Positions 8,855 to 55,750 of a stretch of DNA of 64,000 nt are shown piece after piece. Positions within the stretch are counted from its first letter, which is position 1. The number at the start of each line of letters is the position of its first letter. The stretch is from assembly GCA_000004985.1 (NCBI GenBank), contig GG738882.1; one strand, written 5' to 3'. The notes below the pieces were generated by a model. It was not told the origin of the DNA. It worked only from the letters and a program-made list of their open reading frames with translations, and searched no databases. Made by a program: the position numbers and the translations under genes. The stretch comes from Naegleria gruberi (taxonomy: Eukaryota).

Positions 8855-11245
8855 TTAGTTTATTTCTTCTTTCAAAATTAAATCAAAATCTTGATTATTC
8901 AATTCAGAAGACTCCTCAGGTACTATTCCAGAAGATTCTCCATTTTTCCTTTTTTCAGCTTCCTTTTTCATTTGCTGCCAATTTCTTTTTCTTGTATTTG
9001 TGAACCAGTTGGCAACTTGAACATAGGTAAGACCTGTTTGTTCAGATAAATCTTGTTTTTCTTTAGAACTTGGATATGGATGTTCTATGTGATCCAAAAA
9101 CCAATCTCTCAACACATCTGTGGCATTTGAAGGTAAAAAGTGTTTTCTTTCATTTGCTCGCTTATCATCAAATGTCATTTGTCCTTGAGGGCTTGATGAT
9201 AAAACCATTTGTGAATAACCCATTGACTGATTCATTGTTTGTTGTTGACCAACATTCTGACCTGTTGATACTGAAAATGGATTGGAAATATTTGTCTGAT
9301 TCATCAAGCTTCGTTGTAATTGAGTCATAAACTCATTCATATTTTCAGTTGAGTGATTGTGCATTTCTTTTGTCGGAGAGCCAGGTCGAGAATTAGGCAA
9401 TGAGTTTGGTAATGAATTAGGTAACGAGTTAGGTAATGAATTATTTTGAGATCCAGACCTCGAAGGCAATGGACTATTTGGAGGAGCTGTTAAACCTTGG
9501 AAGAATCCTTGTTCCTTTCTTCTGTGCATTCCTGGTTGCCTCTTTGCTGTACCTGGAGAATTAACGTATGGTTTCTGGGTAGCTCCACTATCTCTACGAT
9601 GATAATTTGTTGGAGTGTTTGTTATAGGATTTGTTTCAATTGAAATTAGGGTCGATGGAGGTGAGGCATTTCCTTGAAGCATGGCTCTGAAACTCTGTTG
9701 ATAGGGAGATGGTGAAGAACTCAATGGTAAACCATCGAGTGGGCTAGAAACGAGTCTCTTCTTTTGTGGCATGTCATGTGTTGATAGTGAAATTAAGGAA
9801 GATTCATCTCCTCCACCAATTCCAATTCCACCTGCTTCCTTCACATTGAGTGCATTGAATAGTGTGAAATCACTTGGCGACTCTTCAGAATTGAAAAAAC
9901 TAGATCCAGTAAATCCTTCACTACTTCCCCCACTTGTACTGTCAGCTGTATTGAAAATATCTTCAAGACCATCATCTTTCAATGAATCTTTAACATATTT
10001 GAAAATGGAACGTTGTTGATTGGTTGGTAATTTTGTTAAAATTGATAATCCTGAAGGAACTGAAATGAGTGGAGAAGAATTTGAATGAGGACTTGAAATA
10101 ATTGGATCTGAGCTTTCAGAAATGGCATCATACTTTCTCTTTCCCTTTCCAATAAGTGTTTGTTCAATAATTGTTTGAACTGTATCTTCACTTGTTGCCA
10201 TAGACATGTCAATTCCATGTTCTGTCAATGTGCCAGTTTCAAAATCTTCACTAATACTCAAAATACCTTCAATACGTGGTGTTGATGGTGTTGTTGAGAT
10301 AAATTCATGAAAATCATTCACATCCAATTGCAAATTTGGTCCATTAACAACATGATCATCTACAATACTAGGAGAAGAAGGATACAAGAAACCTCCTTGT
10401 TGTTGTTGATGAAGTTGATAATTATTCTCATTGAGTGACTGTGTCATTACTTGTTGACCATTGATTGATTGACCAAAAGGAGTTTGATGTGTGGAATTGA
10501 AAGTAAATGTTCCTGGCATGAATACATTATTGTTTACATTCTGTTGTTGTTGATAATGCAATTGACTCAATATATTATTGTTATTATTACTATTATTATT
10601 ATTATGAATAAAACCAGAATTATTGTTAGTTAAGAAAATAGTAGGTGTTTGATGAATAGAGGCAGCATTGTTATTATTATTGGTTTGAATTGGTAAATTA
10701 TTCAATAGATAATTTTGATGATTTGAATTTGAATTTGGAGGAGAGGAAGGAGAATTGGAAGATGAAGTTGTTGTTTTCATTGTATTATTCTGCTGCTGTT
10801 GTTGATTGGTTGAGGAGGAACCATATGAATTCATCATATTATTATTCATATTCATATTCATATTCATATTATTATTATTTGTATTTGTAGTGGTTGAATG
10901 ATGATGATGTACATTATTGGATGATGAAGATGATTGATTCATCAAATTGAACAATACTTGTTGAGAGGGCAGATCATATTGAGAAGCGTAGAATAATAAC
11001 AATTGTTGCTGTTGTTGAGGTGTGAGAGATGAAATCAGTGCATGGCTCATACTAAGTGGTTGTTGTTGATTCATCATGTGCATGTACAATTGTTGCTGCT
11101 GCTGTTGATTGACTTCATATGGTTGTTGTTGTTGACCGCCCAACAAGCCTTGTTGATTGTTGTTGTACATGCGTTGTTGTTGTTGTGGTGTTTGATGAAG
11201 ATGATGATTTGATGCCGCTGCCTGATTAATATTGCCATGCATCAT
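8855..11245 (-). CDS. TALE-class homeodomain transcription factor, Q/N/S-rich
   Basis: The C-terminal homeodomain reads DWFLDHIEHPYPSSKEKQDLSEQTGLTYVQVANWFTNTRKRNW, with the PYP three-residue loop and WFxNxR recognition helix. ATG-ATG at 11245 starts the ORF. Poly-Q/N tracts are extensive. Confidence 0.75.
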   Translation of the reverse strand: MMHGNINQAAASNHHLHQTPQQQQRMYNNNQQGLLGGQQQQPYEVNQQQQQQLYMHMMNQQQPLSMSHALISSLTPQQQQQLLLFYASQYDLPSQQVLFNLMNQSSSSSNNVHHHHSTTTNTNNNNMNMNMNMNNNMMNSYGSSSTNQQQQQNNTMKTTTSSSNSPSSPPNSNSNHQNYLLNNLPIQTNNNNNAASIHQTPTIFLTNNNSGFIHNNNNSNNNNNILSQLHYQQQQNVNNNVFMPGTFTFNSTHQTPFGQSINGQQVMTQSLNENNYQLHQQQQGGFLYPSSPSIVDDHVVNGPNLQLDVNDFHEFISTTPSTPRIEGILSISEDFETGTLTEHGIDMSMATSEDTVQTIIEQTLIGKGKRKYDAISESSDPIISSPHSNSSPLISVPSGLSILTKLPTNQQRSIFKYVKDSLKDDGLEDIFNTADSTSGGSSEGFTGSSFFNSEESPSDFTLFNALNVKEAGGIGIGGGDESSLISLSTHDMPQKKRLVSSPLDGLPLSSSPSPYQQSFRAMLQGNASPPSTLISIETNPITNTPTNYHRRDSGATQKPYVNSPGTAKRQPGMHRRKEQGFFQGLTAPPNSPLPSRSGSQNNSLPNSLPNSLPNSLPNSRPGSPTKEMHNHSTENMNEFMTQLQRSLMNQTNISNPFSVSTGQNVGQQQTMNQSMGYSQMVLSSSPQGQMTFDDKRANERKHFLPSNATDVLRDWFLDHIEHPYPSSKEKQDLSEQTGLTYVQVANWFTNTRKRNWQQMKKEAEKRKNGESSGIVPEESSELNNQDFDLILKEEIN
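9391..9443. repeat. 12-bp tandem repeat (about 4 copies) inside the homeobox CDS, encoding (SLPN)n on the minus strand
   Basis: aattaggcaatgagtttggtaatgaattaggtaacgagttaggtaatgaatta encodes LPNSLPNSLPNSLPNS. Confidence 0.6.
10846..10878. repeat. Hexanucleotide microsatellite (attcat)n inside the homeobox CDS, encoding (NM)n
   Basis: attcatattcatattcatattcat read on the minus strand gives NMNMNMNM. It is flanked by aat/caa codon-repeat tracts between about 10560 and 11200. Confidence 0.6.
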
Positions 11246-11931
11246 TATCGGTGGTGGTTGAAAGGAATTGAGTTGTGTTGTTGTTGTTGGGAATTATTCG
11301 TTGCGGAGGAGAGTAAGGAAAGTAATAAATCATTACTGGTCGTGGTAGTACTATTATTGATATTGTTATTATTATTGTTACTACTACTAGAAATAATATT
11401 GGTAGTGGTGGCGGAAAGGTTGTTATTGGAAGGGGTTGATGGATTTGAATTGTTATTTGGAGAGCTTTGTTGACCAACAACGGAAGAAGACATTTTTGAA
11501 AGTGTTGGTTGCTATTATATTGATAGGATCAAAGGGTGTGATTTAAATGATTGTGAGATTTTTGTGTTGTTTTGAAACAATTTCTTGCATGCCAAATGTC
11601 AGTTTATTGTTGTGTTGACACTGGAATGGTTATTTGATGGCAAGGAAGATTGGTTTCTTTTTTTTAGAGATGTGATAAAGTACGAGGTGAAAACAGTTAA
11701 CTCAGTGAAGATGTGATTTCGAATAGTTTCTTTCAACAAGTGGAGAGAAAGAAAATTAATGTTTACGGGTGAAATGTTGTAGCTCCTCAAAAAGGCAAAC
11801 TCAAAACAATGGTTGTGAACATTTATTTGTTTAGGTTTTAGCTTCCAATAGTTTTAAACGAATCCTTCAAACCTTACAAAAAACATTTACCCAGAGAGTG
11901 AATTTCCCGCATCAAGCAATCAAACTTGTTT

Positions 11932-13587
11932 TTATTTCTCTACAGAATCATAGTAGGAGGATGTGTTTAATTCAGTTTCGTTAAGGTTATCCGAAAGTAA
12001 ATTTTCTTTCAATGCTGCTGAGGCACTAGTAAGTGATTGCTTTCTAATCCTTTCAGCCTTACCGAAACATTTCATGTACATGTCCTTAATCTCCTCTCTT
12101 CTTGAATCCATAAATAGAACAGAAACATTTACAATTAAAATAAAGTAATATCTGAACGCAATTGCCATTGATCTCATCATGAATGAAAAATCCAACACAG
12201 ATGAGATTGGAATAAGAAAATGAACTGAAATGATAAATATCAAGTAGTAAACAATTGAAGAATTGAGTAAATTGACATCTGACACTTTTTTCAATAATCT
12301 AAATCCAACAATTCCAAATGTAAGGAAGAATAATCCAATGAAAAATGCCAATAATGCGTAAACAATGGCAAATGTATACTGATAATCAGTATAGAGATGG
12401 GCAATAATTACAGAAATTGCAGAGATTAGAATAAAAATTGAAATTCCTAAATGAACCCAATTAATGACAACTCCATATTTTTGGTTGACCATCTTACCAA
12501 TTAATCTCAACCAATTGAAAATCCATGAAAATAAACCGATTAGTGCAAATGAGAAACTGGAATAATCCATAATCATTCGATAATTTCCAGGGCCATATAA
12601 TTGAGCTAGATACAACTCAATGGTTAAGATTAGTTCTGAAATGAGTGCACCCAAGCAAGGGCATACTATATATAAACTTTTTCTCCTTCTAAAATCAATA
12701 AATTTTGGAATAATTACAAGAAAAATCATCAATGGAATGGAAAGTGTATGTGAAACAATTACAAAATATCGAATGATCAAGTCAATCCAATAATTATATC
12801 TATTTCCGTTACATTTGAATGAAAAGTAACCTTGGTTTCCATCGACACAATAGCAAATATAATTAAAATCGAGACCTGCTGCATTGAAGTGAAATGACTG
12901 ATTCAAAATTGGTGAAACAATTGATTTGTTTACAACGAATGGAATTCCAAATTCTACTGAACCACAATATAGAGCTGAAGTTGGAAAATTATAAACCATT
13001 ACTTGAGTATAGAAATCTCTAGGATTACAATCATATGTCTTATTACCAGGTTTACAATAGACACAATAATTCATCCAATCAAAAATTGTAGTTTCCTGAT
13101 TTGTAACTTGTTTCAAATATTCAGGTAAGTAATAAGTTTCATTGTAATCACAGAGAAAGGAAGCACAATCCCTCCCAAGAATATTCTCCCACTTTCTCAC
13201 TCTACCACAAATATCATACCACTCTGATGGTTTTGATGAGGTGTGAAACATTGAATACATGATTGAATTGTTATATTTGTGGAAATGAGCGTCGACTGAG
13301 TAATCGTTCCATAGGGTTACATTATCACAATAGAAATCATCTGGAATATCTGAGAAGATGTACTTTTGTTGTGGAAGGTATGAATTAAAGATGGAATAGA
13401 GCATGATTGGGGAGGTATTGGTACAATTGTGAAAGTGTTTCGAATAGAATCGTTTTGGTGAGTGCATGTCAATGATGGAGTTATTAAATCTTGGAGAGAA
13501 TCCAATAACTGATGAAAATTGAAAGACAAGCAGAATGGAACAAAATAAACATAAACCATAGAGAATTGATTTGTGACGTTGAGACAT
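11932..13587 (-). CDS. Seven-transmembrane receptor-like protein with a large Cys-rich N-terminal ectodomain (frizzled/smoothened-like or GPCR-like)
   Basis: The likely start is MSQRHKSILYGLCLFCSILLVFQFSSV, a signal or anchor sequence, at about 13587; the track ORF extends upstream with no stop. The ectodomain of about 300 aa has many Cys residues. Seven hydrophobic segments follow, from LIIRYFVIVSHTLSIPLMIFLVII to MAIAFRYYFILIVNVSVLFM. Confidence 0.55.
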   Translation of the reverse strand: MSQRHKSILYGLCLFCSILLVFQFSSVIGFSPRFNNSIIDMHSPKRFYSKHFHNCTNTSPIMLYSIFNSYLPQQKYIFSDIPDDFYCDNVTLWNDYSVDAHFHKYNNSIMYSMFHTSSKPSEWYDICGRVRKWENILGRDCASFLCDYNETYYLPEYLKQVTNQETTIFDWMNYCVYCKPGNKTYDCNPRDFYTQVMVYNFPTSALYCGSVEFGIPFVVNKSIVSPILNQSFHFNAAGLDFNYICYCVDGNQGYFSFKCNGNRYNYWIDLIIRYFVIVSHTLSIPLMIFLVIIPKFIDFRRRKSLYIVCPCLGALISELILTIELYLAQLYGPGNYRMIMDYSSFSFALIGLFSWIFNWLRLIGKMVNQKYGVVINWVHLGISIFILISAISVIIAHLYTDYQYTFAIVYALLAFFIGLFFLTFGIVGFRLLKKVSDVNLLNSSIVYYLIFIISVHFLIPISSVLDFSFMMRSMAIAFRYYFILIVNVSVLFMDSRREEIKDMYMKCFGKAERIRKQSLTSASAALKENLLSDNLNETELNTSSYYDSVEK

Positions 13588-13929
13588 TTTTTCACGTTTT
13601 GAAAATTCCAATATTAGAAGCTTTTGTAAACAGTTTCCAAGTTGAAGAGTTAAACGTGAACTTGGTGTTGAATTTTCTATATAATTCTTTAAAAAGTATT
13701 GAACGCATTTATTGTTAACAAATCTGATATTTCCTGAACAATAATATATAAGGTATTCCACAAACTCTTAACATTTCCACATAAAAATTGATGTAAAAAA
13801 TTGAAATCTCATGTATGATTCCCATAAATGTTAATCATTATTTAAATTTCCAGCTATTTTTATCTAATCAATTTTCTTTCAGAAATCTCAAAAATTAAAT
13901 TATTTGAAAATTTTAATTAACAAAAAAAA

Positions 13930-19079: not shown

Positions 19080-19152
19080 GTACCCTTGGCTCAATTGGAA
19101 GAGCATCGGCCTACGGAGCCGGGGGTTGTGGGTTCGAGTCCCACAGGGTATA
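19080..19152 (+). tRNA. tRNA-Arg (anticodon ACG)
   Basis: The sequence gtaccct tg gctc aattggaa gagc a tcggc ctACGga gccgg gggtt gtggg ttcgagt cccac agggtat a folds as a cloverleaf. The acceptor stem has 7 bp with one G-U, the D-arm and anticodon stem pair correctly, and the T-loop is the GGTTCGAGTCC B-box. The discriminator is A. Confidence 0.85.
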
Positions 19153-38992: not shown

Positions 38993-41125
38993 TTAATAGA
39001 CACGCTTGAATGGTGGAATATATCCCCACTCCTTTTCATCGAGAGTATAACTGTGGACTGGTCTATATTCAATATTGACCTTACCAGTATCAACATCCAT
39101 TGTGGTAAGAGTGTGCTTCATCCATGTAGCATCATCTCTGTCTGGGAAGTCGTCACGAGCGTGAGCACCTCTGGATTCCTTTCTGTTTTCAGCTGAAAGC
39201 ATAGTTTGTACAGCATTGATCAAAAGGTTTTGTAATTCGAGAATTTCATAAAGGTTAACATTGTAAATTGGTGACTTATCGCCCAACTTAAGGTATGGGA
39301 GCTTATCATAAGCTTCCTTAATGAGTTTACAACCAGTTTCCAAAGTTTCTTGCTTACGATAGACAGCAGCATAGTTTTGCATGACACTTTGCATTTCCTT
39401 TCTCAATTCGTGACATTTGATAGTTCCCTTATCACTATTGAAAAGCTTATCCAAACGAACAATTGATTGCATACCAGCATCAGATGGAAGAGGCTTATGC
39501 TTAGTATCCTTTGGCAAATTTTCCATGACGTACAAAGCACAAGCACGACCAAAGACGACAAGATCCAAAAGTGAGTTAGCACCCAAACGATTAGCACCGT
39601 GAACAGAAGCACAAGCAACTTCACCAGCAGCCAACAAACCCTTAACTGGATAATCTGGTTGATCTTCAGACTTCTTATAGACAACTTGACCAGTGTAAAG
39701 AGTTGGAACACCACCCATATTGTAGTGAACAGTTGGAACGACTGGAATTGGTTCCTTAGTCAAATCGACACCAGCGAAAATCTTGGCAGTTTCAGTAATA
39801 CCTGGTAATCTTTCGTGAAGTAAATCAGTTGGCAAGTGATCCAAGTGCAAGTGAATGTGATCCTTCTTTGGACCGCATCCTCTACCTTCCAAAATTTCCA
39901 TAGTCATAGCTCTACTGACAACGTCTCTTGAAGCCAAATCCTTGACACTAGGAGCATACTTTTCCATAAAACGTTCACCTTCACTATTTCTCAAGAAACC
40001 ACCTTCACCACGAGCGCCTTCTGTAATTAAACAACCAGCACCATAGATACCAGTAGGGTGGAATTGAACAAATTCCAAATCTTGATTTGGTAAACCAGCT
40101 CTAGAAACCATGGCAGTACCGTCACCAGTACAAGTGTGAGCAGAAGTACATGAACCATAAGCTCTACCATAACCTCCTGTAGCCAAAATAGTGTAGTGAG
40201 AACGGAAACGATGCATACTACTATCTTCAAGACAATAAGTCATAACACCTCTACATTCATCTCCTTCCATCAACAAGTCCAAAGCGAAATATTCAATAAA
40301 GAATTGGACGTCATATTTCAAAGCCATACCATAGTTTGTGTGGAGAAGAGCGTGACCTGTTCTATCAGCAGCAGCACAACATCTTCTAGCTTGACCACCT
40401 TTACCAAACTTGATACTTTGACCACCGAAAGCTCTTTGATAAATTTTACCTTCAGGAGTACGAGAGAAAGGAAGACCCATATGTTCCATTTCAATAACGG
40501 CTTGTGGAGCTTCTTTACACATGTAGTGAATAGCATCTTGATCACCCAACCAATCGCTACCCTTGACTGTATCATAGGCGTGATAAGTCCAGTGATCTTC
40601 TGTCATATTTCCAAGAGCAGCGTTAATACCACCTTGAGCAGCAACAGTGTGTGATCTTGTTGGGAACAACTTGGAAATACAGGCAACCTTGTATCCAGCT
40701 TTGGCCAAGTTGGCAGCACAAACGAGACCAGCACCACCAGCACCTACAACAACAGCATCATAAGTATGGTCAATTACTGGATAAACTTGTGAGAGTTGTG
40801 GTCCCTTATCGGTCATTGTTCCTTGTCTAACAGCACTATTTCCTAGCACAACCAAATTTTTGGTATTAGATGAAAAACATCTTTTAGTATTGGATGTTGT
40901 TGTGGATGTTTTAGTAGTAGAATTAATTAATGATGATGAAGATGAAAAAACAGAGTTGTTTTTTAATTGTTGTTGGATTGAAGACTTCAAAGCAGAGACT
41001 CCCTTCAACTTTCTGCAAGACTTGAGCATTTTTTGAGTCTGAATATTTTTTATCAAAATATTTTTAAAATTATTTTCTTGCCTGCTGCAGCCAAAAATCA
41101 TCCGAAGCCTAAAACTCCCCAGCAA
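38993..41125 (-). CDS. SDHA: Succinate dehydrogenase (ubiquinone) flavoprotein subunit, mitochondrial
   Basis: [11 protein letters not shown] is the FAD-binding GxGxxG motif. [10 protein letters not shown] carries the covalent-FAD His. [13 protein letters not shown] and [10 protein letters not shown] are present, and identity to SDHA is high along the full length. The long N-terminal presequence suggests the true start may be an internal Met (MLKSC...). Confidence 0.9.
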
Positions 41126-41866: not shown

Positions 41867-42904
41867 GTGTTAACAATGAAACTCTTTATGGCTCTCATCT
41901 TTTTATTCCTTGCATTGTTGGCTAACAATGGCAGATGTGCAACAGTAAATCCAATTGCATCTGTTCAGTTTAATCAAGTGATTGATGCAGCCATGACCAA
42001 TATTTTGCACAAGTCAGAAATAACAAGTGCTATCAATGATTGTAAGTAGTTGTATACTAAGTTTTATATGGAAAATATATTCGAAATTAGTTTTTACGTT
42101 TCCTGCTCCTACTTGTTATGCTTCAATTTCCTTCCCTGCCATCAATCCAATTCCTGCATCAGTTTCTCAAATTCGATTCTGCAATCTCAACTATGGCCTT
42201 TACAAAACTTTAGTAAGTAATTACAGCTCTTAAGTTTCTTATTAACCAAATTATTTGCTATATTCAATTAGGGAAATGCAATTGTTAGTGCAATCAACTC
42301 CCAATACAAACTTTCCCTCACAGCAAATTATGACGCAGTGGTCAATGTTTCAGTTTCTTATTTCAATTCATTGAAAACTGCAGTCGATTCCTCAGTGTGT
42401 GATGTTGTCATTGCAGAGACAGTATATACTGCAGAAAGAGCAAAGCTTGTAAAATATACTACTTGTGGTTATGGAAGCACCTCATATGGTTTTTTAAGAG
42501 GAGCATTGGATAATTCAACCATTAGTATTTCAAATGTAAATGATTTGAATAATCCAGCAGTCAAAATTTCAGTTGTTAAGGGATCAATTTTTGACACCTA
42601 TGTGAATCAATCATTACCATTAGCTCAAAAGGTGTATGCTTCCTATGGAGCTCAAATGCAATTGGTTGCTGATGGGGTTGTCCATGCAGTTGTGGATGAT
42701 GCAGTTGGACTTAATCAATTTCGATTGAACAATATGAAAGATTGCACTTCATGTTTTGTGAAACTATTTGGAGATGTTAGCACCTTCTCAGCTTTTACAG
42801 AACTAACAACCAAATCGAATGGAGCATTTTCAATTTTTAACACCTTTACTCTGTTAATGATGTGTACAGCAAGTCTGTTTATTAGTTTTCTTGTAATTTT
42901 ATAA
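41867..42904 (+). CDS. Secreted periplasmic-binding-protein (SBP_bac_3) -like protein with a probable GPI-anchor signal; 3 exons
   Basis: Exon 1 (41867..42041) encodes the signal peptide MKLFMALIFLFLALLANNGRCA. Exons 2 and 3 are 42091..42212 and 42272..42904. Introns are GATT|gtaagt...aaattag and TTA|gtaagt...caattag, and frames agree with track ORFs 41867, 42027 and 42338. The mature region VCDVVIAETVYTAERAKLVKYTTCGYG...VKGSIFDTYV...DGVVHAVVDDAVGL resembles bacterial type-3 solute-binding and glutamate-receptor ligand-binding domains. The C-terminus is a hydrophobic tail, NGAFSIFNTFTLLMMCTASLFISFLVIL. Confidence 0.5.
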
Positions 42905-42934: not shown

Positions 42935-44662
42935 TTAAATATTGATTTCAACAGTTCCATTTTCCAAGTCTGCCAATAAATTCTTCATTTGACTGTCAAT
43001 GGTTGAGAGAGCAAATTGGACATGTTCGAGATTTGTGAAGGAACCACAAATTGCCAATCTCAAACAATACTTTCCACCCAAAACAGTATGACTCATGTAC
43101 ATCATACCATTTACATTAATTCTTTCAATAAGAATCTCGTTGAAACGATTTTCCTTTTGGAGAGACCATTCTGAATTGTGATATCTGAAACAGATAAGAC
43201 TGGTAACTCTTGGAGCTAGGAATTCAATGCATGATTGCTTTCTCAATTCAGTTTCGGCATATTTTGTAAGATTAATGTGATGTCTGAGATACTTTTGAAG
43301 TCCACTAATACCATAAACTCTCATAACAAGCCACAATTTCAAAGATCTGAAACGTCTACCAAGAGGCAACTGCCAATCTCTGTAATCAGTAACAAGTCCA
43401 CTACTGGATGCCTTATTTTTCAAATATTCAGGATCTAAAGACAGAGCATTCTTCAAATGTTTTCTCTCCTTGACCCAAAATGCACAACAATCAAAGTTTG
43501 TCAACATCCACTTGTGAGGATTGAATGTGAAAGAATCAGCAAATTCCAAATATTCACAATTATCACCACCAACAAAAGCTTGTCTACATTCAGGTAGCAT
43601 GAGTGATGATCCAACGAATGCAGCATCAACATGAAGGAATAATGAAAACTTTTGACAAATTGCTCCAATCTTGGATAAATCATCAATGGCAGTGCTACTT
43701 GTTGTTCCAATGGTTCCACAAACAAAGAATGGAATTAAACCATTTTCCAAATCCTGTTGAATAGTTTTTTCCAATTCATTTTCATTCATATTATAAGTGT
43801 CTGGATAGGCAGATATTTTCCTCAAATGAATAATACCAGTGACCATGCATGCCTTCTCAATAGAGCTGTGAGTTTGACTTGAAACGTAGGCCACTAACTT
43901 TCCTTGAAAATCAGCTTGATTGAATGAATCACCCATTTCATTCTTCATTTGGACACGTTTCTTTTCTTTAGCTGCTAACATTGCAACTACACCAGCTGAT
44001 GAAGCTGTATCTTGAATGGATCCTCCCTTTTCAGAAAGTGGTTGTTGAGATTTCAAATTTTGTAAAATAACTTACACCTGTTGTTTCACTTAAAAAGTGT
44101 TTTGGTAAATGGAGAGCTTTGGCCAACCAGTCCATAACAATAGTTTCCAATTCTGTGCATGCAGGTGAAGTAATCCAACTAAAACCAATGACATTGAACA
44201 TTCCTGACAAGATGTCACCAATGAGAGCAGGATATGAAAAATTGGCAGAAAAGAACTATCATTTTCAATTATTCTAATACATGTATTCCAAAAACCTACA
44301 GAATAGAAATTAGGATGTTGCCAATGAGTTACTCCCATAGTAATCTTCTCAGAAACATCTTTCAAAATATCATCAAATGATTCTCCATTAAGAGGTGCTT
44401 CATTTGGTAATAATTTTTGCAAATAACCTGGTTGTACTTGAGAACAGACTGGGTGATGAATTTTGTTTTCTTCTAAAGTATTGTTTGGATTAATTAATTG
44501 ATCATGATAATTAACAATATAATCACCAACTGTATTTAGGTGATTTTTGAAATCGGAGGCAGACCATGGATGTTGAAAATTGAGTTCTTCAAGTGTAAAT
44601 TCCGATGATGAATTGTTATTCTCTTGTGATGGGAGTGGCTGTTGATTGTTTGATGGAAGCAT
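42935..44662 (-). CDS. DDC: Aromatic-L-amino-acid decarboxylase (PLP-dependent group II decarboxylase), 3 exons
   Basis: Exons are 44300..44662, 44076..44255 and 42935..44026. Introns are a 44-nt TCT|gtaggt...gatag and a 49-nt GGT|gtaagt...gaaaag. The spliced product reads ...GVTHWQHPNFYS|FFSANFSYPALIGDILSGMFNVIGFSWITSPACTELETIVMDWLAKALHLPKHFLSETTG|GGSIQDTASSAGVV... and aligns with human DDC. The PLP lysine is in SFTFNPHKW. Confidence 0.85.
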
Positions 44663-54595: not shown

Positions 54596-55750
54596 ATGTC
54601 CACGCCAGCAGATTCTGTTACTCCCACCGATCATACAACTACAACAACATCAATGGAGGATGATCCACAAAATACAGTAGTAACATCAAATTCTCGTGAA
54701 CAGGAGGATAAAGCGATGGCTGCTTTGGATTTATTCGGAGATCATGATGGTGGTGTAACAAAAATAACAACAACAACAAGTGGTGATAATAATAATATGG
54801 CTGATGAAGATGATGACGATGATGATGATTTATCTGATGATGATGACGATGGAGTTACTTTTGTGACTAGTACAGAAACTGCAGCACAAGCAGCTACAAC
54901 AAAACCAACAGAAGTTACACAAATTGCTATCGGTGATTCTAAAAACAATGTTAAAAGTCAAGCTAACAAATCTGTGGATTCACAATCAATTAATGGAGAT
55001 CAATTTAAAGGAAGTGGTTATGTAGAACTTTTTCCACTCAAGATGAATGAAAATGTCTTCTTCAATGATTTACAAAATTATGAAGATAAACCTTGGAGAA
55101 AACCTGGAGCAGATATTACAGATTATTTTAATTATGGTTTTAATGAGGAAACATGGGAATTGTACATTCAAAAACAAAGAGAATTGAGAGGAGTTTATTC
55201 ATCAAATTCCGAAAGAAGTAAATATGAGTCGAGGGATCAAAGAGGTTCTTCTAGGGATCCTCGTTCATCAGGAAAGGACGATAGATCTGGAAGACCACCT
55301 GCCTCTCCTGTCAGTACAACTAGTAGCAATAGTGATGATAGACGATATGATAGAAGAGACGATGATAGATATGGAAGAAGATATGATAGAAGAGATGACA
55401 GAAGAGACGATAGAAGAGACGACAGGCCAAGAGACGATAAGAGAGACATTAAGAAAGATAATACCCCAACTAGAGATTCAGATTACAATGATAAGAAGAG
55501 ACCTATTTCATCTTTGGAAAGTCCAAAATCTTCTTCATCAAACAGAGATAGTAGGGATAGTAGGGACAGTAGAGATAGTAGAGACGGAAGAGACTCAAAG
55601 CCTTATGGAGGAAAAGATAGCTACTATGGTGGCGATAGAGGAAGAGGTGGATCAAGCAGTGGTGGACGAGGAGGAAGCTCTTATGGAGGTAGCTCAAGTA
55701 GTAGCAGTGGTGGCAATAGAGGAGGAGATCCTAAGAAACAAAAACGTTAA
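54596..55750 (+). CDS. FIP1: Pre-mRNA 3'-end processing factor FIP1
   Basis: The conserved Fip1 motif is [35 protein letters not shown]. An acidic poly-D N-terminal region and an RD/RS/RG-rich C-terminal tail are present. The start follows an A10 run. Confidence 0.8.
55546..55584. repeat. 12-bp tandem repeat (agggatagtagg-like) encoding (SRD)n within FIP1
   Basis: agggatagtagggacagtagagatagtagagac encodes [11 protein letters not shown]. Confidence 0.5.

Follow-up and report, generated by a model that had tools for sequence, protein, structure and literature searches.

What kind of protein is encoded at positions 41867-42904 of a 64,000-nucleotide (nt) stretch of Naegleria gruberi DNA (assembly GCA_000004985.1, contig GG738882.1), and where does it belong among the known binding proteins? 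Free binding proteins of the bilobed type-II fold are a hallmark of prokaryotic nutrient uptake, and eukaryotes are known to use it mainly in glutamate receptors, as the part that binds the ligand. The whole 64-kb stretch, hereafter the window, is AT-rich (~33% GC) and gene-dense, with long open reading frames (ORFs) on the plus and minus strands. A preliminary description, made from its letters, had proposed a spliced gene for a secreted, probably glycosylphosphatidylinositol (GPI)-anchored protein with a fold of bacterial type. We find that the gene belongs to a lineage-restricted multigene family whose products are circularly permuted, disulfide-rich binding proteins tethered at the C-terminus; the family is auto-labelled in databases and uncharacterised. 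Our best explanation, which we think fairly probable, is that this real spliced gene encodes a secreted, probably GPI-anchored, permuted binder of an amino-acid-like ligand that acts in sensing or capture; we infer the anchor, the ligand class and the role.

A three-exon gene and the two ends of its product

The gene is made up of the following parts (positions in the protein are given as amino acids, aa):

41876-42041, plus strand: exon 1, aa 1 to the first base of codon 56, with the start ATG, a signal-peptide-like segment and most of the N-terminal helix pair
41876-41941, plus strand: signal-peptide-like region MKLFMALIFLFLALLANNGRCA, aa 1-22, called from hydropathy and from equivalent N-terminal hydrophobic segments in homologues
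42042-42090, plus strand: intron 1, 49 nt, GTAAGT...TAG; the junction rebuilds FxFPxPxC
42091-42212, plus strand: exon 2, the rest of codon 56 to aa 96, with a Cys-containing linker (C64), the first lobe-1 strand (IRFC, C86) and the start of helix 1
42213-42271, plus strand: intron 2, 59 nt, GTAAGT...TAG; the junction rebuilds YKTL joined to GNAIV
42272-42904, plus strand: exon 3, aa 97-306 and the TAA stop, with the rest of lobe 1, lobe 2, the return strands and the C-terminal tail
42815-42901, plus strand: candidate GPI-attachment signal, with small residues S278-N279-G280, the 8-residue spacer AFSIFNTF and 19 hydrophobic residues (aa 288-306), called from hydropathy and inspection

When spliced, the gene gives 921 nt that translate into 306 aa with zero internal stops, while the unspliced reading meets stops in both introns. 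Its earliest in-frame ATG lies at 41876; position 41867 is a GTG start from the mechanical ORF list. GTAAGT is rare on the plus strand of the window (8 copies against ~22 expected from base composition), and 2 of the 8 lie in this gene. A tblastn search of the window with five homologues gave one high-scoring segment pair (HSP) that starts exactly at 42272, the first base of exon 3, separate HSPs in a different frame on exon 2 (42099-42182), and HSPs on exon 1 that run from 41936-41954 onward. Splicing recreates a conserved motif of the family at each junction, F-x-[FV]-P-x-P-x-C at the first and Y-K-x-[VL]-G-x-x-[IL]-V at the second. Finally, a metagenome contig that is 99% identical (L001, ENA ERZ929261) carries within intron 2 a deletion of 8 nt (42241-42248) and a single substitution, and differs from the window in exon 3 by 5 substitutions only, 3 of them synonymous. 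A similar 49-nt GTAAGT...AG intron (44027-44075) occurs in the decarboxylase gene next door, which lies on the minus strand, and there too the sole indel between the window strain and L001 falls inside the intron. Because of the GTAAGT depletion, the positions of the tblastn HSPs, the rebuilt junction motifs and the L001 deletion in intron 2, the gene model is beyond chance, and we count the three-exon gene as real. Its reading as a pseudogene was considered and rejected. The three exons and two GTAAGT introns of 49 and 59 nt given in the preliminary description were thus borne out. The accompanying statement that the gene is invisible to the ORF track was only partly right: no single ORF spans the gene, but exon 3 is listed as a 188-aa GTG ORF (42338-42904) and exon 1 as a 60-aa ORF.

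Exactly two stretches of the 306-aa protein are hydrophobic: aa 1-19, and aa 288-306, with which the chain ends. Mean Kyte-Doolittle hydropathy exceeds 1.9 in windows within aa 1-19, and homologues have matching N-terminal segments, in agreement with the signal peptide that had been proposed. Similarly, the tail has the layout of a GPI-attachment signal, as first described: the last charged residue of the protein is K277, and tails of equal layout recur in most full-length or stand-alone family members. In the model of exon 3 (see below) this tail forms a lone helix beyond the last strands. We think it most likely, judging from these residues, that the hydrophobic C-terminal signal is exchanged for a GPI lipid anchor. 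Six cysteines are conserved in the family alignment (C64, C86, C139, C161, C254 and C257) and the protein carries three N-x-S/T sequons; both features would suit an extracellular location. A Naegleria pangenome paper mentions evidence of GPI-anchored proteins in Naegleria (PMC9928731), and a literature search for a Naegleria GPI transamidase found no paper.

Bilobed fold and permuted chain order

Two parts of the protein bear on its fold:

42162-42799, plus strand: bilobed binding-domain core, aa ~80-272, interrupted by intron 2
41960-42041, plus strand: N-terminal helix pair VQFNQVIDAAMTNILHKSEITSAINDF, aa 29-55, the predicted counterpart of the C-terminal helices in canonical family-3 binding proteins, from hhalign, a bridge profile and a homologue model

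An AlphaFold model of exon 3 (aa 97-306, from a 65-sequence alignment) reached a predicted local distance difference test (pLDDT) score of 92.0. Foldseek matched this model with probability 1.0 and E ~1e-11 to 1e-9 to AncCDT-1, a Trp-binding protein, AbpA, Cys-, Gln- (GlnBP) and Arg-binding proteins, and GluR0. A full-length homologue (P0004), ~36-41% identical to the window protein, was modelled with a pLDDT of 92.4 and a predicted template modelling (pTM) score of 0.86. When the family profile was compared with solved structures, E values down to 1e-16 were obtained, with AncCDT-1, AncQR, a glutamate-binding protein and GlnBP among the matches, and 40 of the 65 family members match Pfam SBP_bac_3 at E <=0.01. 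Single-sequence searches of the spliced protein against Pfam and solved structures gave sub-threshold matches only; against TIGR01096 it reached E 3e-6 and 26.8 bits, below the curated cut-off of 256. Homology to the family-3 binding proteins, as traced through the family profile, is secure at the superfamily level. As modelled, the product has a bilobed type-II alpha/beta fold with a cleft between the lobes, and we count this fold among the points established here.

The fold named in the preliminary description, that of bacterial periplasmic solute-binding proteins of type 3, was therefore recovered: the exon-3 model, the Foldseek probability and the profile E value all show structural similarity to periplasmic binding protein type II folds. 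The likeness that it drew to bacterial amino-acid-binding proteins holds for the bilobed shape; the domain is not a plain copy of theirs, as its chain order is circularly permuted. A further likeness, to glutamate-receptor ligand-binding domains, extends to the Foldseek match with GluR0 and not to the receptor architecture. Ionotropic glutamate receptors (GluR0, AvGluR1, NMDA, plant GLR) keep the canonical helix order, whereas the window protein is permuted. No channel segments (S1-M1-M3-S2-M4) split its domain, hydrophobic segments being found only at the extreme ends, and no Pfam Lig_chan match was found in the protein; a glutamate-receptor architecture was rejected on these last two grounds.

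Canonical chains begin with the first strand and end with the helix pair, and the window protein does not follow this order. In the exon-3 and P0004 models no helices come after the last strands and the chain runs directly into the tail, while in the P0004 model helices 26-40 and 43-53 (pLDDT 94-98), equivalent to aa 29-55 of the window protein, precede the first strand. More canonical-looking relatives start with a segment such as GNDEFLDALNAALHNIIDDGTYDTIYSTWF, a hallmark of the C-terminal helices in HisJ, GlnBP and their like. A bridge profile made of 13 such N-terminal segments matched 43 solved proteins at E <=0.01 (best 2e-11). All are family-3-type, and nearly all were matched at the extreme C-terminus (3vv5 at 224-258 of 260, AncQR at 202-233 of 233, HisJ at 203-231 of 238, GlnBP at 194-222 of 226); the sole exception is the tandem-domain chain 6h30, where the match (196-224 of 460) falls on the C-terminal helices of the first domain. 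A Naegleria-type N-terminal profile of 27 sequences, the window protein included, in turn matched the bridge profile with an hhalign probability of 94.4% and E 9e-8, the two sequence sets being disjoint. Furthermore, P0059, a kinase-fused relative, is collinear with a bacterial tandem-domain protein from the C-terminal helices of one domain through the next domain. Undoing the permutation in silico gave a consistent picture: with the helices moved to the C-terminus, TIGR01096 coverage in the archaeal relative P0071 grew from 16-213 to 17-250 of 250 (155.5 to 171.1 bits), and that in the P0059 ectodomain from 21-169 to 22-250 (32.6 to 39.9 bits). The family hidden Markov model (HMM) aligns to bacterial domains only over positions ~136-260, and the Naegleria-type N-terminal profile found no significant match in bacterial proteins. 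Judged from profiles and models together, the N-terminal helices of the family are the canonical C-terminal helices, and we count the permutation at family level among the points established.

The family, its prokaryotic relatives and its putative ligand site

The family was found by an exhaustive phmmer search of cluster representatives with exon 3 as the query, which returned 90 representatives at E <=0.001 and 39 at <=1e-10. Those with names are predicted proteins of Naegleria gruberi, N. fowleri, N. lovaniensis, Willaertia magna and Heterolobosea sp. BB2; the Naegleria and Willaertia homologues have E values of 1e-43 to 1e-20 and identities of 30-43%. Examples are N. fowleri FDP41_000021, N. 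lovaniensis C9374_008029, N. gruberi NAEGRDRAFT_68554 and W. magna ABK040_0104xx, and several members carry the UniRef auto-name "solute-binding protein family 3". W. magna has a local cluster of members (ABK040_010430 to 010448), and no paralogue was found within the 64-kb window, where the gene is single copy. A word-indexed protein search with the spliced protein yielded nothing beyond the exon-3 ORF from a metagenome strain that is nearly identical, and the same search repeated with the family alignment found 7 proteins only. Full-length members are ~280-340 aa long and share a signal peptide, the N-terminal segment FxQAIDAA..., a P-x-C linker, the motif C-D...R...C-x-Y-G, a C-x-x-C near the end and the hydrophobic tail. 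Alignment and comparison of tails find every one of these features in the window protein, which places it in the family. It shares its full architecture, cysteine pattern, N-terminal helices and tail with the auto-named heterolobosean proteins, and differs from these paralogues in a first lobe-1 strand and loop that are 8 residues shorter and in a Val five residues before the conserved Arg. A literature search on the heterolobosean family, locus tags included, found no paper, and searches on the metagenome project and on permutation arising naturally in binding proteins likewise gave nothing of relevance. Three features appear to be new, as no description of them was found in the literature searched: the permutation, the probable tether by GPI and the affinity to archaea described next.

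The best single-domain prokaryotic matches to the family HMM were P0050 (72 bits), P0071 (67 bits) and P0081 (68 bits), the alignment of P0071 being collinear over HMM positions 6-306; single domains of the bacterial tandem proteins among the matches reached <=42 bits each. The 90%-identity cluster of P0081 contains a near-identical protein (P0100, NCBI MHA2252251.1) from a metagenome-assembled genome (MAG) of Candidatus Kariarchaeaceae, an Asgard lineage. A scan of prokaryotes with one genome per species found one Kariarchaeota MAG and ~22 Marine Group II MAGs (Poseidoniales, Thalassarchaeaceae) at ~50% identity (loci L004-L026). These archaeal matches mostly start at residue 15-40 and hence include the helix pair (two are cut at residue 156), whereas the bacterial matches are ~30% identical and all but one start near residue 95, the canonical domain start. 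The archaeal proteins (P0050, P0071, P0081 and the Marine Group II loci) have the shared helix pair first and end at an FG-x-GV return strand (FG-x-GVR), after which come an acidic or Thr-rich linker, a transmembrane helix and basic residues. Because their domain ends at this strand and an anchor follows, they have the permutation point of the amoeba family and, like it, are tethered at the C-terminus. They differ from the window protein in having no cysteines, no introns, a transmembrane helix with basic residues at the anchor position, and TIGR01096 scores of 143-159 bits. Altogether, the most similar prokaryotic proteins appear to be permuted, C-terminally anchored and archaeal, not bacterial, a comparison that reflects similarity scores rather than a tree and that MAG binning may mislead. 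The bacterial origin raised in the preliminary description is accordingly not the best reading, given the spliceosomal introns, the old, diversified heterolobosean family and the archaeal scores of 67-72 bits against <=42 for bacteria; the archaeal similarity makes it the less likely wording.

Other arrangements of the same domain were seen among these relatives. P0036, P0069, P0083, P0088 and similar bacterial proteins have 3-5 tandem family-3 domains fused to a permease, with a lobe-2-only half-domain first and a lobe-1-only half-domain last, just before the membrane part, so that their repeat register looks shifted against the canonical domain. In a Candidatus Thalassarchaeaceae MAG (L011, 2863-5961), a 1032-aa archaeal protein has its family-3 domain opened at yet another point: DWDPIIP stands at the start of the domain, the first strand and helix of the canonical order stand at its end, and the canonical C- and N-termini are connected by a VVLTDD...TATS linker. 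After this domain come two more large repeats, which on inspection by eye may resemble type-I binding proteins, and no ABC (ATP-binding cassette) transporter genes were found adjacent to the gene. The L011 arrangement suggests several independent openings of a tandem or circular ancestor.

Two codons mark the putative ligand site:

42437-42439, plus strand: Arg152, codon AGA, in the motif T-x-E-R, aligned to TPER of AncCDT-1 and equivalent to HisJ/LAO Arg77
42698-42700, plus strand: Asp239, codon GAT, aligned to the D of the TDS motif in AncCDT-1 and equivalent to HisJ/LAO Asp161

The alignment to AncCDT-1 also places Gly200-Ser201 at the lobe-2 G-T-T motif. From the established HisJ/LAO/GlnBP structures, we take Arg77 to bind the alpha-carboxylate of the ligand and Asp161 its alpha-ammonium. 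Counted over the family alignment of 65 sequences, with denominators that vary by position, Arg152 is conserved in 60/60 sequences, Ser/Thr201 in 63/65, Gly200 in 54/64 and Asp/Glu239 in 52/59, and positions 145, 147, 202, 203, 205 and 238 are variable. This pattern fits a constant grip on an amino-acid-like backbone combined with a varying side-chain specificity. The polar amino-acid-binding proteins (SBP_bac_3/TIGR01096: HisJ, LAO, GlnBP, ArtJ, AncCDT-1, AncQR) share with the window protein the bilobed type-II fold, detectable homology and the backbone-anchoring Arg, Ser/Thr and Asp. Unlike them, the window protein is permuted, eukaryotic with introns, rich in disulfide-forming cysteines and C-terminally tethered. 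It thus falls outside the curated polar amino-acid-binding families on score threshold and chain order, and agrees with them in fold and in Arg152, Ser201 and Asp239.

We propose that the product would run from the signal peptide through a two-helix element and a cysteine-containing linker to the bilobed type-II amino-acid-binding core and the C-terminal hydrophobic signal. A ligand with an alpha-amino-acid-like carboxylate and amine would be clamped between the two lobes, its backbone held by Arg152, Ser/Thr201 and Asp239. The side-chain pocket would differ between paralogues, and the family would in this way sample different ligands at the cell surface. To our knowledge eukaryotes are without binding-protein-dependent ABC importers, so that sensing or capture is the likeliest task of the bound protein; unlike for the bacterial importer binding proteins, no ABC permease partner is expected. 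Its role might be that of a co-receptor or presenter to a membrane partner, or that of a scavenger. In the wider family the fold appears to be used for signalling, because two relatives, P0059 and P0087 (the latter from the amoebozoan Nematostelium gracile), carry the permuted ectodomain, including the C..R..C.Y motif shared with the window protein, on a transmembrane kinase. These two relatives lend some indirect support to the chemosensory role that the preliminary description had raised as a possibility. Both P0059 and P0087 have one transmembrane helix and a cytoplasmic Tyr/Ser-Thr kinase domain, while the window gene ends at the presumed lipid-anchor signal. StpK7 and the sensor domains of BvgS/EvgS are comparable in bacteria. 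Among secreted protist proteins, this general fold has a precedent in PfVFT1 of Plasmodium falciparum (PDB 5jkq; Parker et al. 2017, PMC5563136), which has no identifiable membrane anchor and for which a GPI anchor was reported as unlikely (PMC13199436). PfVFT1 lies outside the heterolobosean family, at a much greater distance, and lacks the anchor.

Several observations weigh against the reading of the window protein as a permuted, GPI-anchored amino-acid binder. Searched alone, it scores 16.6 bits on Pfam SBP_bac_3 (PF00497), and exon 3 scores 17.3, where the cut-off is 26.4. The Naegleria-type N-terminal profile alone gave no significant match to canonical C-terminal helices in solved structures, and de-permuting the window protein's own sequence brought no score gain; its own permutation is read from the profile-profile link, the P0004 model and the missing C-terminal helices. 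Val147, five residues before Arg152, takes a place at which amino-acid binders usually have Ser or Thr, and with the shortened first strand and loop of lobe 1 the pocket may differ from that of the paralogues. As to the tail, the GPI call reads its layout, and a plain membrane anchor would fit too. Retention of the C-terminal segment as a single-pass membrane anchor, in place of a GPI swap, would agree with the true transmembrane helix found at the equivalent position in the closest archaeal and the kinase-fused relatives. In those proteins, however, the helix is followed by basic residues (RRKK, KKRRDS), whereas the window protein and most stand-alone members have no charge after the hydrophobic run, and the small-residue cluster ~8-10 residues before this run is the classical GPI-signal layout. 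We therefore consider a retained membrane anchor rather unlikely.

The remaining alternatives appear weaker still. If the family had kept the scaffold, lost small-ligand binding and expanded for the sake of surface variation, the product would be a coat or adhesion protein, which is improbable in our view: invariant Arg152 (60/60) and nearly invariant Ser/Thr201 (63/65) and Asp/Glu239 (52/59) in 65 divergent sequences are hard to explain without ligand binding, even though a multigene family with local clusters (such as W. magna ABK040_010430 to 010448), a GPI-like tail and variable pocket positions would suit that role, and the binding protein PEB1a is called a bifunctional adhesin in its NCBIfam name. 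That the binding-protein fold serves here as an enzyme, like cyclohexadienyl dehydratases or MltF, is very improbable; proteins of both types are among the sequence and structure matches, but the best matches are binding proteins (AncCDT-1, the ancestor without enzymatic activity, AncQR, ArtJ and GlnBP), and no second catalytic domain was found in the window protein. Least credible of all is a recent transfer from bacteria or an assembly contaminant. The fold is overwhelmingly prokaryotic and bacterial tandem-domain proteins are among the matches, yet the gene is interrupted by two spliceosomal introns in the style of the host, sits at host GC content between eukaryotic genes, and has dozens of diverged paralogues in >=5 heterolobosean species; moreover, the archaeal permuted proteins outscore by far any single bacterial domain.

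Surroundings of the gene and meaning of the family

The neighbouring genes and other features of the window are:

38993-41125, minus strand: succinate dehydrogenase flavoprotein (SDHA), apparently intronless
42935-44662, minus strand: pyridoxal-dependent (aromatic amino-acid-type) decarboxylase, with the 49-nt intron at 44027-44075 mentioned above
19080-19152, plus strand: tRNA-Arg (ACG), the only tRNA in the window
55334-55447: imperfect 12/24-nt tandem repeat, GATAGAAGAGAC-like, inside a coding ORF

SDHA and the decarboxylase are the immediate neighbours of the binding-protein gene. The SDHA of the window shares 85% identity with its Willaertia magna counterpart, 72% with the Acrasis kona protein and 87-89% with environmental sequences, which places the window in a vahlkampfiid amoeba of the Heterolobosea, from the Naegleria/Willaertia group. 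The decarboxylase is convergent with the binding-protein gene, the two stops being 30 nt apart, and the listed 190-aa ORF at 44090-44662 leaves its true frame near the 3' end of that ORF. That an amino-acid decarboxylase lies beside a putative amino-acid binder may be a coincidence. An exact look-up of one neighbouring ORF of the window gave no match. Over the whole window, GTAAGT occurs in 8 and 10 copies per strand against ~21-23 expected, a ~2- to 3-fold depletion that would fit a compact genome in which spurious 5' splice sites are avoided. GC skew reaches +0.34 in 10001-12000, against absolute values of <=0.15 elsewhere, at the ends of the long minus-strand ORFs 8855-11245 and 11932-13761. 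The product of the repeat at 55334-55447 is probably a charged stretch of low complexity.

This gene adds one more member to a family already auto-labelled in databases. The family would nonetheless provide a natural circular permutation in a widely engineered biosensor scaffold, and a eukaryotic surface protein whose closest prokaryotic relatives found are archaeal; its N. fowleri members would be candidate surface antigens. More tentatively, and we hold this to be a possibility well short of probable, Heterolobosea and some Amoebozoa may carry an undescribed surface system that recognises amino acids or related metabolites, in which a permuted fold taken over or inherited from archaea (Marine Group II or Asgard Kariarchaeota), not from bacteria, serves in GPI-anchored binders beside receptor kinases with the same ectodomain. 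If true, this would be a parallel to the binding-protein-dependent chemoreceptors of bacteria, re-invented with eukaryotic anchoring and signalling parts, and the family may offer bacterivorous amoebae, relatives of the pathogen N. fowleri included, a new way to sense or harvest amino acids.

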